Virus record (IMG/VR): IMGVR_UViG_3300029794_000105
Location: 1-5,109 of that record
DNA: 5,109 nt
Origin: a virus
Strand: one strand, 5' to 3'
Below the pieces are notes generated by a model that was not told the DNA's origin, made no database searches, and saw only the letters and a list, made by a program, of their open reading frames with translations. Positions 1,005-5,109 of the stretch are shown piece after piece; the first letter of the stretch is position 1, and the number at the start of each line of letters is the position of its first letter. The position numbers and the translations under genes are program-made.

Positions 1005-1039
1005 AAAAAAAGGGCGATCTCCGTGAGATCGTCCTTTTT
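1005..1039. terminator. Bidirectional rho-independent terminator: A7, then a 10-bp stem (GGGCGATCTC / GAGATCGTCC, one G-T position), 3-nt loop, then T5. On the sense (minus) strand the hairpin is followed by U7
   Basis: aaaaaaaGGGCGATCTCcgtGAGATCGTCCttttt read directly. Located in the 109-nt gap between the ORF95 stop (1066) and the VP3 start (956). Confidence 0.6.
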
Positions 1040-1085: not shown

Positions 1086-1353
1086 TATCCTGCACGTAAT
1101 CTACGGCGCGACCAACCAATACAGGAACGCGGGATTCGTCAGAACTTTCAATATAATAACGGCCATCAGAATCGCCAAGGTTACCGATGTAATAAAGACT
1201 AAAATCTTCAGGATAGCTATTAATAAGCGTCTTATCATCATTGCATAAACCCTCGAAAGCTCGCAGAGCGAGCATGTCATTATGGTAGACCTGTGGGGGG
1301 CTGAATTGTTCAGCCTTGGAGTCATAAATGGAATAGAGTCTCAGTGTCAACAT
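1066..1353 (-). CDS. Hypothetical protein, 95 aa, strongly acidic (about 17 D/E vs 7 K/R), unknown function. Occupies the VP4-VP3 accessory interval
   Basis: ATG at 1353-1351 is directly abutted by AAGGAG (cgaaAAGGAGatg; spacing is suboptimal, and a TTG second codon is an alternative). It overlaps the end of ORF94 by 32 nt in another frame and fills otherwise non-coding space in a compact genome. No recognisable motif. Confidence 0.5.
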   Translation of the reverse strand: MLTLRLYSIYDSKAEQFSPPQVYHNDMLALRAFEGLCNDDKTLINSYPEDFSLYYIGNLGDSDGRYYIESSDESRVPVLVGRAVDYVQDIDNDSI

Positions 1354-1606
1354 CTCCTTTTCGTAAGTGGATTATAAACCGACGAATCATAAGGTGCGTA
1401 GAATTAGGTATAACGAAATAATCAGAATCAAGTCGAATAACATTATAACCGTCAGGTTTGAGTCGATAGGCAGCGTATTTAGAACCTCTGAAAACGAACT
1501 TAAAGGGTATACCTTTATGTTTGCAAAAGGATTTGACGGCAGCAAATTCGCTAGAAAATCGTTCGATATAATCACCTTCTTTCTGACCTAATAATAACAC
1601 AATCAT
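1322..1606 (-). CDS. Hypothetical protein, 94 aa, in the position occupied by VP5 in chlamydiaphage-type gokushoviruses (immediately 3' of Rep). Translationally coupled to VP4 by an ATGA overlap
   Basis: Start ATG 1606-1604 overlaps the VP4 stop TGA 1605-1603. Upstream AAGGT is 6 nt from the ATG. Protein MIVLLLGQKEGDYIERFSSEFAAVKSFCKHKGIPFKF... is mildly basic with no TM segment. Confidence 0.55.
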   Translation of the reverse strand: MIVLLLGQKEGDYIERFSSEFAAVKSFCKHKGIPFKFVFRGSKYAAYRLKPDGYNVIRLDSDYFVIPNSTHLMIRRFIIHLRKGDVDTETLFHL

Positions 1607-2514
1607 AATACCTTGTCAAGCTTTCTGCCGAGAAAATGCTTATACTTACCTTCCTGAACGCGACAACGATCAATCAATCGCTCGAAAGTATTATTCTCCA
1701 AGTTATGAAGCATCTTCTCAATGCGATTATTACGAATGTATTCCATCCAGTGAGGATGTGTTTCATTGAATTTATTGTCGTAATAATGAGGAGGACGCAT
1801 CTTCTTACCGTTGATAACAACGAAATCATTAGCATAACACTCTTCACCATGCTCTTCAAGCCATTTTCCGCCTATGCCAGGACGATTGGATGCAAGCATA
1901 AACTCAGGCGTACGGCCATTATAGTGAGCAGCAGCTTTACTGCCAGTCTGCTTCTTCACTATGTAACGCGCGACATAGGCAGCAGCATCGAAACTAAAGT
2001 CGCCAATAAGATGCATACCGTATTTCCATATCTTGGAGAAGCGAGCAGAAGTATAAGTGCTATAACCGTCTGTACGGAACCGAAAAACTTTGTCATCAAA
2101 ATTAATATTAAACAATATATAATGATAATGGGGACGACCATGAAGTTCACCATATTCACCACAGCCGAGGAAGCGAATGCCATTGCCATACTCACGACGA
2201 AGATTTTTCATGAACGTCTGATGAAATTTCTTGCTCAAACTTCTATCGCTCGGCAGATGATAATCGTCGAAAGTACAAGTAACGAAAAAAGCAGAGGACG
2301 AAGTACGGGCTTCGTGAACAGCTCTGACAGCCCATTGACGAGAGTTTTCAAGTCGACAACCGATGCACTGCTTGCAAGAACAACGAATGAACCGACTATC
2401 GTTAGCAAGTTCAGGGTGAGAAGCCAAGCTGCCGTAGAAACTATAATGTTGTTTTCCGTTTTTCGTAAATGCTCCTTCGACCGGGTACATGAGAATAGGA
2501 TTGTAGCATACCAT
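1603..2514 (-). CDS. VP4: Replication initiation protein VP4 (rolling-circle Rep, phiX174 gpA-like), 303 aa from ATG 2514. The ORF track's start at 2523 is an upstream GTG
   Basis: RCR motif I is FFVTCTFDD. Motif II is GRPHYHYILF. Motif III has two tyrosines, AAYVARYIVKK (compare phiX174 A YVAKYVNKK). The N-terminal Cys cluster CSCKQCIGCR is typical of microvirus Rep. N-terminus MVCYNP fits the microvirus MxCxxP start. SD AGGTGA lies 5 nt upstream of ATG 2514. Confidence 0.95.
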   Translation of the reverse strand: MVCYNPILMYPVEGAFTKNGKQHYSFYGSLASHPELANDSRFIRCSCKQCIGCRLENSRQWAVRAVHEARTSSSAFFVTCTFDDYHLPSDRSLSKKFHQTFMKNLRREYGNGIRFLGCGEYGELHGRPHYHYILFNINFDDKVFRFRTDGYSTYTSARFSKIWKYGMHLIGDFSFDAAAYVARYIVKKQTGSKAAAHYNGRTPEFMLASNRPGIGGKWLEEHGEECYANDFVVINGKKMRPPHYYDNKFNETHPHWMEYIRNNRIEKMLHNLENNTFERLIDRCRVQEGKYKHFLGRKLDKVL

Positions 2515-2556: not shown

Positions 2557-2667
2557 TCAAATCCTAAATCCACCTCGTCCTACTCTCTTGAAATTCCTAC
2601 GACGAGATCTAGAGGTGCGCTGAAAGAGACGGCGAGAACCTCGCTTAGACACGCGGCGTCTTTTCAT
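2557..2667 (-). CDS. 36-aa arginine-rich micro-protein (MKRRRVSKRGSRRLFQRTSRSRRRNFKRVGRGGFRI; 14 R + 3 K). Candidate DNA-binding/condensing protein analogous to phiX174 J / chlamydiaphage ORF8. Absent from the ORF track because of its length
   Basis: Hand translation of the minus strand: ggagggatactaaATGAaaagacgccgcgtgtctaagcga...aggattTGA. The ATG (2667-2665) overlaps the TGA stop of the 79-aa ORF (ATGA). GGAGGG sits 7 nt upstream. An in-frame TAA immediately precedes the ATG, so the start is unambiguous. Stop TGA at 2559-2557. Its position directly upstream of Rep matches ORF8 of chlamydiaphages. Confidence 0.6.
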   Translation of the reverse strand: MKRRRVSKRGSRRLFQRTSRSRRRNFKRVGRGGFRI

Positions 2668-2903
2668 TTAGTATCCCTCCAAGAACCGAAAAAACGGCTA
2701 GTTTTTTTAGAATCATTCTTATTAGAAATTGGCTCAACAAGTTTGTCAACATCGTGCGAAAAGTCGGATGCGACTTTACTGGCAAGCTGAGTAGATGAAG
2801 TAGGACGACCTTTAAGTGCTTCGATCAGATCACAAACTTCCTGAATAAATGGAACAACAACGGTGACAATGAAAGTTAGAATCATAGTAGTTTTGTTAGA
2901 CAT
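2664..2903 (-). CDS. 79-aa small membrane protein: N-terminal single transmembrane helix (MILTFIVTVVVPFIQEV) and a hydrophilic C-terminal tail. Function unknown; candidate lysis or entry-associated protein
   Basis: ATG 2903-2901. The VP2 stop TAA (2920-2918) sits inside its SD (TAAGGAGtgcaaaatacATG). Downstream it is coupled by ATGA to the Arg-rich ORF. Same strand as all real genes, and it fills the VP2-VP4 interval. Confidence 0.6.
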   Translation of the reverse strand: MSNKTTMILTFIVTVVVPFIQEVCDLIEALKGRPTSSTQLASKVASDFSHDVDKLVEPISNKNDSKKTSRFFGSWRDTK

Positions 2904-2917
2904 GTATTTTGCACTCC

Positions 2918-3604
2918 TTACTTGAAAAGATAACCAATACCACGAAGAATATGGCCAAGACCTGAATTGCCAACACCTAACGAGTCATAGAAGTCAGCTT
3001 CCTGCTTCGAAAGACGGGCATTTTGGGCCGCGAAGCCCGCGGCAGAATTGGACTGATTAGCTGAAGCAATGTTGGAAAGTATGCCTGAAGAGAGATAGGA
3101 TCCTTGAAGCCTTAGGTTCTGCAGCTCCTGATCCATTCGCTGAAGCTCATAGCCAAGGCGTTTTTCGTAAGTCTGCTCGGCGAGATTAAGATTATTAGCC
3201 TTAATACCATTATCTAGAACTATTCCATGGGTCGCCTGACGCGTAGAATCAGCTTCTGCGACGTTTTTCTCAATTTGAGACACGGCAAGATGCTCGGCAT
3301 TCTTAGCCTGCCGTTCAGCGGCACTAGCAGCTCTAGCAGAGTTCATGGTAGAACCGATATCACTCATTCCGACAGAAGCAGCTGAAGCTCCAGCTATAGA
3401 ACCGCCTATACCATTAGTCGCAGCAAGAATAGGGTTAAGACCAGCTTTGCGCATATCTTCAACAGCCCATTGATAACGTTGTTTATAATTTTCAACGTTC
3501 CAAGCGTTAGCCTGTGCGGCGTTGGAAGAATTATAATGATTCTGAACTGCGGATCCAAAGATGGAACCAGCAACGCTGCCTAACGTATTAGAAAGCCATG
3601 ACAT
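2918..3604 (-). CDS. VP2: Minor capsid / DNA pilot protein VP2, 228 aa, Gly/Ala/Ser-rich
   Basis: Contains the hallmark gokushovirus VP2 block NAWNVENYKQRYQWAVEDMRKAGLNPILAA (N.W..E....Y...V.DM.KAGLNP.LA). ATG 3604-3602 is preceded by AAGGAG with a 10-nt spacer. Starts 14 nt after the VP1 stop. Confidence 0.88.
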   Translation of the reverse strand: MSWLSNTLGSVAGSIFGSAVQNHYNSSNAAQANAWNVENYKQRYQWAVEDMRKAGLNPILAATNGIGGSIAGASAASVGMSDIGSTMNSARAASAAERQAKNAEHLAVSQIEKNVAEADSTRQATHGIVLDNGIKANNLNLAEQTYEKRLGYELQRMDQELQNLRLQGSYLSSGILSNIASANQSNSAAGFAAQNARLSKQEADFYDSLGVGNSGLGHILRGIGYLFK

Positions 3605-3618
3605 ATAACCAACTCCTT

Positions 3619-5109
3619 CTAGAAGTGATCGACAAGACCAGGTGTGCCGAACATAGGCATAGGACGCACGGTAGTATAACGGAAGCCTATGTCGAGCAAA
3701 AACTCAGGCTCATCCTGAACAGCGACAATGCGCTTAATAGGTGGATTCTCGGTAATGAATTCCTCATTCAGAGTAGGCGCATTGCTGAAATACTGGGACA
3801 GGTGCCAAACGTCAAGGTTACCATCAACTACAGAACTACGGAATTTCCCGGTAATCTGCGAAGGTTTGTAACGATATTCAGCATAACGCTCCTGGTAACC
3901 GAAAACAGTAGTATCATCTTTAGTACCCTGAGCGTAAATCTCGCGAAGCTCAATAGCCTGTTCACCAAGGTGTGCGAATGTCGGCCAATAGAAATCATAG
4001 ACAGTAGAACGAAGCCACATCTTATTAATGCCTTGTTGATAGGTAAGGTCGGCGCGGGCACAGACGAAGCCTATAATATAGCCGTGTTCGACGAAAGATT
4101 TCGTAAATCCATGGAATCTAGACGCAGTAACACCGTAAGCTGAGAGATTGCCTTGAGGAGAAGTGTTGTCGGTCGCAGAAGTCTGAGCTATTGGGTTGAC
4201 GTTGACCATCTTAGTGAAAGAACCGAGAAACTCAGGGCGCTGAAGACGAGCGTCCGGAGAAACTACACCGAAGAAAGAGCGAAGCACTTCAGTGTACCGA
4301 CTGCCACCGCGAGCAAGGCGCTCGTAGAACTTCTGCATCTGAAAAGCAGTACGAAGACTATTGATAGTGAAAATGCTAGAAGAATCCAAGTCGGCATAAG
4401 CAGATTTAGAAAGCCATGAAGAACCGGGTTGAGCAGTAATAGTAGACACACTAGAATTGTTGATAGAGTGACCAGCTATAGAAACACTATAACCACCTTG
4501 ATACTGTAATGTACCGCTTCCAGTATATACATCATGAACACCGCCATCTTTCGAAAGCTGAGCAGCGCCTAAGCTATTATTAGACTGTTGAACGAAATAG
4601 CCCGAAACAGGCGAAGGGTCAACTAGAGTAGCGGTGCCGGCAAGGCCTATAGATACACCGGGTCCTTTCTGTGTCCAAGGAAGGGCCGAAGTAAAGTAAT
4701 CATGACGCTTGCCGCGAGGTGGGCAAGCAAGACCAGCTACTAAAGTAGTGTCGGAACTGAATACCCATGAAGGCTGATCGGAAGAACGAGAGGAATCCAA
4801 TGCTTCATTGGTATCGCCTTTCTGGATTTTGACAGACTTCTGGAGATTTTCATCTCTGAACCATTCGTTCCAAATGAGGTATACAGCGCGGAATGGAAGA
4901 GCACTAACGGTTAGATTACCAGGCGTATTCACGGGCAAGCCGAAATAGTCCCATAGAGAACCTACGTAATTATTATCGCTGTTAGCAGTAGCAGTAACAG
5001 TAGGGATGACATAATCAGTACTATCGTCAGGGTCTTCCTGTTCGAAACAGAAATTCTGCCAATGGTCCCAAACTAGACGATTCGGGACGAAGAAGAAGAA
5101 CCAGTCGAG
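3619..5109 (-). CDS. VP1: Major capsid protein VP1 (Microviridae F/VP1 family), C-terminal ~496 codons. The ORF runs off the window end and continues at window position 123 downward because the genome is circular
   Basis: Hand translation upstream of the reported TTG at 4938 shows the frame stays open to 5109: ...LDWFFFFVPNRLVWDHWQNFCFEQEDPDDSTDYVIPTVTATANSDNNYVGSLWDYFGLPVNTPGNLTVSALPFRAVYLIWNEWFRDENL... This matches the conserved gokushovirus VP1 block (FFVPNRLxW, DYxGLP, ALPFRAY..NE.FRD). The C-terminus ends ...RYTTVRPMPMFGTPGLVDHF with a TAG stop at 3619-3621. The 4938 start in the ORF track is an artifact of the window edge. Confidence 0.93.
   Translation of the reverse strand, partial: LDWFFFFVPNRLVWDHWQNFCFEQEDPDDSTDYVIPTVTATANSDNNYVGSLWDYFGLPVNTPGNLTVSALPFRAVYLIWNEWFRDENLQKSVKIQKGDTNEALDSSRSSDQPSWVFSSDTTLVAGLACPPRGKRHDYFTSALPWTQKGPGVSIGLAGTATLVDPSPVSGYFVQQSNNSLGAAQLSKDGGVHDVYTGSGTLQYQGGYSVSIAGHSINNSSVSTITAQPGSSWLSKSAYADLDSSSIFTINSLRTAFQMQKFYERLARGGSRYTEVLRSFFGVVSPDARLQRPEFLGSFTKMVNVNPIAQTSATDNTSPQGNLSAYGVTASRFHGFTKSFVEHGYIIGFVCARADLTYQQGINKMWLRSTVYDFYWPTFAHLGEQAIELREIYAQGTKDDTTVFGYQERYAEYRYKPSQITGKFRSSVVDGNLDVWHLSQYFSNAPTLNEEFITENPPIKRIVAVQDEPEFLLDIGFRYTTVRPMPMFGTPGLVDHF
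4987..5109. repeat. Second copy of the terminal redundancy (equals 1..123)
   Basis: Same observation as feature 1..123. Confidence 0.9.

Follow-up and report, generated by a model that had tools for sequence, protein, structure and literature searches.

The 36-codon open reading frame on the minus strand of the analysed DNA (hereafter the window, 5,109 nt) is a real gene under purifying selection, and it very probably (probability about 0.9) encodes gokushovirus VP8 (ORF8), a 4.5-kDa DNA-packaging peptide made up to 47% of Arg and Lys. The assignment of the gene (36 codons plus TGA, 2557-2667, minus strand) combines the ORF call, its conservation among relatives, a match to PDB chain 8des_E and a profile built from four known VP8 proteins.

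The window contains a gokushovirus gene set, and all genes recognisable with Pfam and PHROGs lie on the minus strand. Its two ends are identical over 122 nt (1-122 and 4988-5109), as expected from the terminal redundancy of a circular assembly; the genome is thus a circle of about 4987 nt, across whose junction VP1 is intact. The genes are ordered VP1, VP2, 79-aa ORF, VP8 and VP4, and correspond to the major capsid protein VP1, which reads through the circular junction (Pfam Phage_F, E = 4e-121), the pilot protein VP2 (2918-3604), a 79-aa ORF (2664-2903; phrog_23638, E = 9e-43), VP8 and the replication initiator VP4 (Rep; 1603-2514; Pfam REP_ORF2-G2P, E = 3e-17; phrog_942, E = 7e-113). The minus strand also carries a 94-aa ORF (1322-1606), VP5 (1066-1353; Phage_ORF5) and the scaffold protein VP3 (474-956; Chlamy_scaf). 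The same genome evidently recurs in independent metagenome assemblies, two full alignments giving 99.98% and 100% identity, and megablast retrieved from GenBank ten gut-derived gokushovirus relatives that are 82-86% identical, or about 84% at the nucleotide level, and originate from the faeces of humans, pigs and dogs.

The VP8 frame runs from an ATG at 2667-2665 to a TGA at 2559-2557 (minus strand) and translates as MKRRRVSKRGSRRLFQRTSRSRRRNFKRVGRGGFRI, a peptide with a computed pI of 12.0 and a mass of 4.37 kDa once Met1 is removed, in which 17 of the 36 residues are basic (14 Arg and 3 Lys) and none is Asp or Glu. Its length alone is unremarkable, as 80 stop-to-stop segments of 30 aa or more occur in the window; among these 80, however, it has the most extreme basic fraction, 0.47, followed by one of 0.31. 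A Shine-Dalgarno sequence, GGAGGG (2680-2675, minus strand), is located within the 3' end of the 79-aa ORF and separated by a 7-nt spacer from the VP8 ATG. The latter is immediately preceded by an in-frame TAA (2670-2668), which makes an upstream extension of the frame impossible, and it overlaps the TGA stop codon of the 79-aa ORF (2666-2664) in the form ATGA. The resulting TAA-ATGA junction (2664-2670, minus strand) has the arrangement typical of translational coupling, and the conservation of the overlap suggests that VP8 may be coupled to the upstream gene; together with the strong Shine-Dalgarno sequence, it would fit high-level, possibly coupled, translation of VP8. The Rep ATG follows at 2514, 43 nt 3' of the VP8 stop. 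The position of the ORF, its GGAGGG, the ATGA overlap, the in-frame TAA and the 47% basic content had all been listed in a preliminary description of this DNA, and each can be read directly in the sequence. A fusion of the 79-aa and VP8 frames by frameshifting was also considered, on account of conserved upstream A7 and T6 runs, and was rejected because the in-frame TAA bars read-through.

An ORF of exactly 36 codons is found at the same place in all ten GenBank relatives, one of which starts with GTG, and in all 78 usable IMG/VR relatives, where it always ends in GRGGFRI; the latter set derives from 80 contigs whose Rep proteins are 90-95% identical, 78 of which had enough upstream sequence. 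Neither an indel nor a stop interrupts the frame in any of these 88 genomes. The preliminary description had regarded loss of the ORF from close relatives as evidence against the gene; no such loss was found, the 36 codons being kept in 88 of the 88 genomes with the region present, with substitutions of the coding type. Conservation extends to the start signals, with GGAGGG retained in 10/10 GenBank relatives and 77/78 IMG/VR upstream contexts (the 78th locus begins too near the ATG to display it) and an RTGA overlap in 79/79 aligned sequences (76 ATG, 3 GTG). Variable columns are distributed over the three codon positions as 6/5/21 in an alignment of 11 genomes and as 12/12/30 in one of 79, and third positions hold about 76% of the diversity of the ORF. 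Mean pairwise dN/dS amounts to 0.077 and 0.11 in the two alignments, respectively, and Arg is preserved through two-base switches between CGN and AGR at codons 3, 5, 20, 22, 23 and 35.

These observations bear on a reading in which the open frame is incidental, the region being conserved as non-coding DNA on account of its cis elements (the Rep promoter with sequences upstream of it, possibly also signals for replication), and the Arg-rich translation being a by-product of CG/AG-rich sequence. Such a reading would account for the near-consensus promoter-like site that overlaps the VP8 stop, as well as for the fact that the intergenic hexamers and, synonymous sites included, the final ~24 nt of the ORF are nearly invariant. 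However, variation over the first 72 nt of the ORF still falls as 6/5/16 by codon position, Arg is kept across the CGN/AGR switches at a dN/dS of about 0.1, and the frame is free of indels and stops in 88 genomes, whereas the opposite strand gains stops. Moreover, the peptide matches the VP8 of phages with which there is no shared nucleotide similarity, and the region's DNA folds no better than shuffled sequence does (z = 0.12). Because of the codon-position pattern and of the homology to phages of unrelated nucleotide sequence, the non-coding reading is excluded, and we give it a practically negligible probability. The plus-strand ORF 2554-2790 (78 aa), which is antisense to both VP8 and the 79-aa ORF, is interrupted by one to three stops in each of the ten GenBank relatives and is, as had been supposed, a spurious antisense shadow.

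Two structural candidates were examined in the same region and discarded. The fold value given above (z = 0.12, no better than shuffles) lends no support to a DNA hairpin, or to a structure resembling an origin, between VP8 and Rep. A terminator-like hairpin inside the VP8 ORF (2644-2632; 5 bp) is weak, and hairpins of this kind are no more numerous than chance would give.

At the gene's 3' end, the last eight to nine codons (2560-2586) vary little even synonymously, with the AGA, GGA and GGT codons each found in 79/79 sequences, which points to an overlapping constraint at the DNA level, upstream of a promoter-like site. This site, of sigma-70 type, occupies 2532-2560 on the minus strand (TTGACA-17-TACAAT with an extended -10 TG; 11/12 to consensus, and a consensus match only); the VP8 stop codon falls within its -35 hexamer, and the site is positioned just upstream of the Rep Shine-Dalgarno sequence (AGGTGA) and ATG. 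In 79 relatives both hexamers of the site are almost invariant and the spacer between them is variable.

The same arrangement could be taken to mean that the ORF has a regulatory function, as an upstream ORF or leader peptide whose translation itself, rather than its product, sets the expression of Rep (VP4). The ORF is directly upstream of Rep and ends within the putative Rep promoter, and Arg-rich nascent peptides can stall ribosomes. However, a leader function leaves unexplained the family-wide SRRLF and RGG-x-R-hydrophobic-COOH motifs, together with the homology to a peptide found within virions; the 43-nt gap contains an apparent independent promoter and a separate Shine-Dalgarno sequence for Rep; and VP8 is retained in E. 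coli prophages even though integration separates it there from Rep. A leader peptide is consequently regarded as extremely improbable.

When the VP8 peptide was compared with PDB chains using phmmer, a single significant match was obtained, to the 39-aa chain 8des_E, extending from residue 2 to the C-terminus (E = 0.002); a profile built from 18 representatives of the 36-aa clade alone likewise had 8des_E as its sole PDB match (E = 1.7e-4). This chain is identified as phiEC6098 VP8 by its 39-aa length, its name 'Putative DNA binding protein' and its near-identity to the VP8 of E. coli gokushovirus prophages (PMC7062461, PMC11281519). An HMM constructed from four proteins, namely Chp2 ORF8, phiEC6098 VP8, phiMH2K VP8 and SpV4 ORF8, and excluding the clade of the window, gave the VP8 ORF 20.8 bits (E = 2.4e-6) and ranked it first among the 133 six-frame ORFs of the window, the next scoring 7.5 bits. 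None of 5000 composition-preserving shuffles of the peptide reached 20.8 bits (mean -4.8, sd 3.0, maximum 15.3).

A family profile run against 5.8 billion proteins returned 270 matches, nearly all of 36-40 aa and mostly from 4-5 kb contigs; the named ones in UniRef are 'DNA binding protein VP8' (phiMH2K) and 'DNA binding protein ORF8' (SpV4). Among the 120 family matches listed, 113 measure 34-41 aa, 111 end in RGGx[RK] plus a hydrophobic residue, the basic fraction averages 0.37 (range 0.24-0.50) and there are 0.12 acidic residues per protein; the basic content of the window VP8, 0.47, is at the top of this range. The family signature consists of a basic N-terminus, SRRLF, an asparagine that precedes the C-terminus by about 11 residues, and a terminal RGG-x-R-hydrophobic, and every one of these elements is present in the window VP8 (GSRRLF, N25 and RGGFRI). 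The first three fall within the N-terminal basic arm (codons 1-28; 2584-2667, minus strand), which contains 3 Lys and 12 Arg, and N25 aligns with the invariant asparagine of a six-sequence alignment. The family-defining C-terminal motif RGGFRI-COOH (codons 31-36; 2560-2577, minus strand) is the most conserved part of VP8 and is invariant in the 18 clade representatives; a C-terminal motif of this kind arose by chance at the C-terminus in 52 of 200000 shuffles of the peptide. Across 30 family members, R31, G32, G33 and R35 are invariant and S11 and F15 are at least 90% conserved.

Other comparisons gave little. A tblastn search of 50,697 phage records with the peptide gave no match, almost certainly owing to the low-complexity filter. 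The PHROGs match of the VP8 ORF is weak (phrog_10695, an unnamed 39-position family, E = 0.006), no model matching the peptide was found in Pfam or NCBIfam, and pairwise BLASTP with composition adjustment was not significant for either Chp2 ORF8 (E = 1.8) or phiMH2K VP8 (E = 0.12). A phmmer search of 1.84 billion representative sequences produced one match, at 86% identity, 36 aa being too short for distant relationships to reach significance in a collection of that size, in which, moreover, most copies are missing because they were not called as genes. VP8 sequences are short and compositionally biased, with HMMER bias terms of 9-19 bits, and as a result of this and of the non-significant BLASTP values, the case for homology is built on profiles and motifs, on the shuffle control and on synteny. 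By its motifs, size, charge and position upstream of Rep, the window ORF is a VP8 orthologue.

Comparison with individual family members details this relationship. The VP8 of phiEC6098 (8DES chain E), similarly small and very basic, shares the pattern RRR-SKR-SRR-F...RNFK-R-RGG-R-[IL]-COOH with the window peptide from end to end; it has 39 aa and terminates in MRGGIRL, whereas the window VP8 has 36 aa and terminates in GRGGFRI. By profile, the family of the window VP8 also includes SpV4 ORF8/VP8 (9CGM, 38 aa), Chp2 ORF8 (44 aa) and phiMH2K VP8 (38 aa), all of which share with it the RGG-x-R-hydrophobic C-terminus as well as the asparagine located about 11 residues before the end; the SRRLF-RT core is additionally held in common with Chp2 ORF8. 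The more distant of the aligned family members are 26-58% identical to the window VP8.

Gene position is shared as well. In the circular genome of phiEC6098, as in the window, VP8 comes after the VP2 block and before VP4 (PMC7062461), and the VP8 gene is directly upstream of Rep in Chp2, phiMH2K and the phiMH2K-like metagenome contig L101. The junction with the preceding gene differs: in E. coli prophages VP8 directly follows VP2 and has its own GGAGGTGA, whereas in the window a clade-specific 79-aa ORF, with its ATGA overlap, is interposed between the two. Unlike in the window, the VP8 genes of Chp2 and phiMH2K stand alone without an overlapping upstream ORF, so that the overlap is not a family-wide property. 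Contig L101 (2516-2727) does have such an upstream ORF, of 32 aa, whose overlap with the VP8 start takes the form ATGA, as in the window.

The preliminary description had presented the ORF as a packaging peptide functionally analogous to phiX174 J and overlooked by automated annotation. The homology to the VP8 family and the annotation gap support this, and the relation to J holds as a functional analogy only. There is no detectable sequence relationship between the window VP8 and the J proteins of phiX174, G4 or alpha3: neither Microvir_J nor any other Pfam family was matched up to E = 1 by the window VP8, or up to E = 10 by 30 family members. Likewise, no J chain appears up to E = 10 among the PDB matches of the single peptide, of the clade-only profile or of the family profile. 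The family profile holds identical or nearly identical copies of both of its PDB hits, which makes it circular as a test of membership, and it was used for the absence of J only, the clade-only profile serving as the independent test. The genomic context is also different from that of the Bullavirinae, where J is located between D/E and F and where D and G are present: the window instead carries VP1 of Phage_F type, VP3 of Chlamy_scaf type, VP5 of Phage_ORF5 type and VP4 of REP_ORF2-G2P type, and no homologues of D and G (external scaffold and spike) were found in it with Pfam and PHROGs.

In microviruses and gokushoviruses, J and VP8 are described as DNA-binding proteins of very small size (25-40 aa) that are rich in Arg and Lys (PMC3091885). 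J enters the procapsid with the ssDNA, and its C-terminus is lodged in the same hydrophobic region, buried in the coat protein (PMC3091885, PMC11281519, PMC11980548), structural conservation between J and VP8 being limited to the last four residues (PMC11281519). At ssDNA loading, VP8/J takes the place of the internal scaffolding protein (PMC11980548). In the SpV4 map, VP8 residues 9-38 line the inner surface of the capsid and the C-terminal residue sits in a hydrophobic VP1 pocket near the two-fold axis, whereas in phiEC6098 it is the C-terminal ten residues of VP8 that are ordered inside the capsid (PMC11281519). SpV4 VP8 is seen in empty capsids as well (PMC11281519), and the coupling between VP8 entry and DNA packaging may therefore differ from the J paradigm.

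The gene itself, its family and its expression signals are documented by the data described above, and the mechanism outlined here is modelled on SpV4, phiEC6098 and phiX174 J. As the last gene of the VP1-VP2-79aa-VP8 block, VP8 would be made late and in roughly the stoichiometry of the capsid protein, its translation being due to ribosomes recruited by its own Shine-Dalgarno sequence, to those that have just finished the 79-aa ORF, or to both. With 15 of the 17 positive charges, the N-terminal arm of the peptide (residues 1-28) would bind newly made ssDNA and accompany it into the procapsid, an activity that its charge and its homologues make plausible, while the internal scaffolding protein VP3 would leave as VP8 enters with the ssDNA. 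The C-terminal RGGFRI would fit into a hydrophobic pocket at VP1's inner face, as the SpV4 and phiEC6098 structures lead us to infer, and would thereby tether the genome to the shell. At 60 copies, a figure assumed from T = 1 structures, the +17 charge per molecule would yield about 1020 positive charges, enough to balance about 20% of the ~4987 phosphates; this estimate, like the copy number and the sequence of events, is extrapolated from phiX174, SpV4 and phiEC6098.

A different main role can be conceived for the peptide, either as an Arg-rich effector directed at the host (membrane-active, lytic or RNA-binding) or as a non-structural cofactor of replication or packaging that does not stay in virions. 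The deposited record of Chp2 ORF8 calls it a 'nonstructural protein', the window gene is joined to that of a putative 79-aa membrane protein, and the virion evidence for this clade comes from homologues. Nevertheless, the phiEC6098 and SpV4 homologues are resolved in the capsid with their conserved C-terminus on VP1 (PMC11281519), and it is precisely this VP1-bound C-terminal motif that is the most conserved part of the window VP8. Such a role is accordingly judged very unlikely, and packaging of DNA by a virion-associated VP8 is preferred.

The neighbouring 79-aa ORF has a hydrophobic N-terminal segment (residues ~5-20 by hydropathy), with Pro18 conserved in 79/79 sequences, followed by a hydrophilic tail, a layout that recalls small phage membrane or lysis proteins. 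Its substitution pattern is of the coding type, and it appears to be restricted to the clade of the window; it is represented by 489 protein clusters, the top 120 of which are all at least 84% identical. One of its homologues bears the implausible source name 'intergrase/recombinase'. A further possibility, speculative and on balance unlikely, is that VP8 translation is obligatorily coupled to that of the 79-aa protein, whose proline-containing hydrophobic segment would make it a candidate gokushovirus lysis or membrane factor, and that the last VP8 codons double as the -35 and upstream part of the Rep promoter. If true, packaging-protein dosage, a membrane function and transcription of the replication gene would be tied together within about 150 nt.

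The ATG of the 94-aa ORF (1322-1606, minus strand) overlaps the Rep stop, again as ATGA, and its end overlaps the VP5 start. Searches of Pfam, PHROGs and NCBIfam gave no family match for it; the metagenome contigs include it among their gene calls but the GenBank relatives leave it unannotated, and extraction by blastn yielded five full-length matches, the region diverging too fast for such a simple approach. A second promoter-like site (1591-1619, minus strand; TTGACA-17-TATTAT with TG, 11/12) is found at the Rep stop and the start of the 94-aa ORF, and a terminator-like hairpin with a 7-bp stem and T7 (1015-1031, minus strand) lies just past VP5. These two elements suggest separate transcription units for Rep and for 94aa-VP5.

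VP8 is uncalled in all 17 records inspected, comprising the ten GenBank relatives and seven metagenome contigs, in agreement with the earlier supposition that annotation misses this gene. The seven contigs, which carry the genome of the window at 99.98-100% identity where checked, encode an identical 79-aa protein and an identical 36-aa ORF, and a 149-nt gap is left in their annotation between the 79-aa gene and Rep. The gap extends to protein databases: the family has no Pfam or NCBIfam model, the exact VP8 sequence of the window and the commonest variant of its clade are both absent from a collection of 15 billion proteins, and the 36-aa clade contributes 17 representatives to the 120 family matches listed, as against 489 clusters for its 79-aa neighbour.

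In summary, VP8 is an established gokushovirus component (PMC3091885, PMC7062461, PMC11281519), with two examples resolved in virion structures, and VP8/J-type peptides are established in the Microviridae; its biology is already known, and only the annotation gap is new, so that the result represents a sound annotation correction rather than a discovery. The gokushoviruses concerned form an abundant clade in the human and animal gut; all of their genomes examined carry VP8, yet the annotations of all ten GenBank relatives lack it. Either a small HMM or a search upstream of Rep for the motif SRRLF...N...RGGx[RK]-hydrophobic-stop would restore a core component of the virion that is missing from 'five-gene' gokushovirus annotations.
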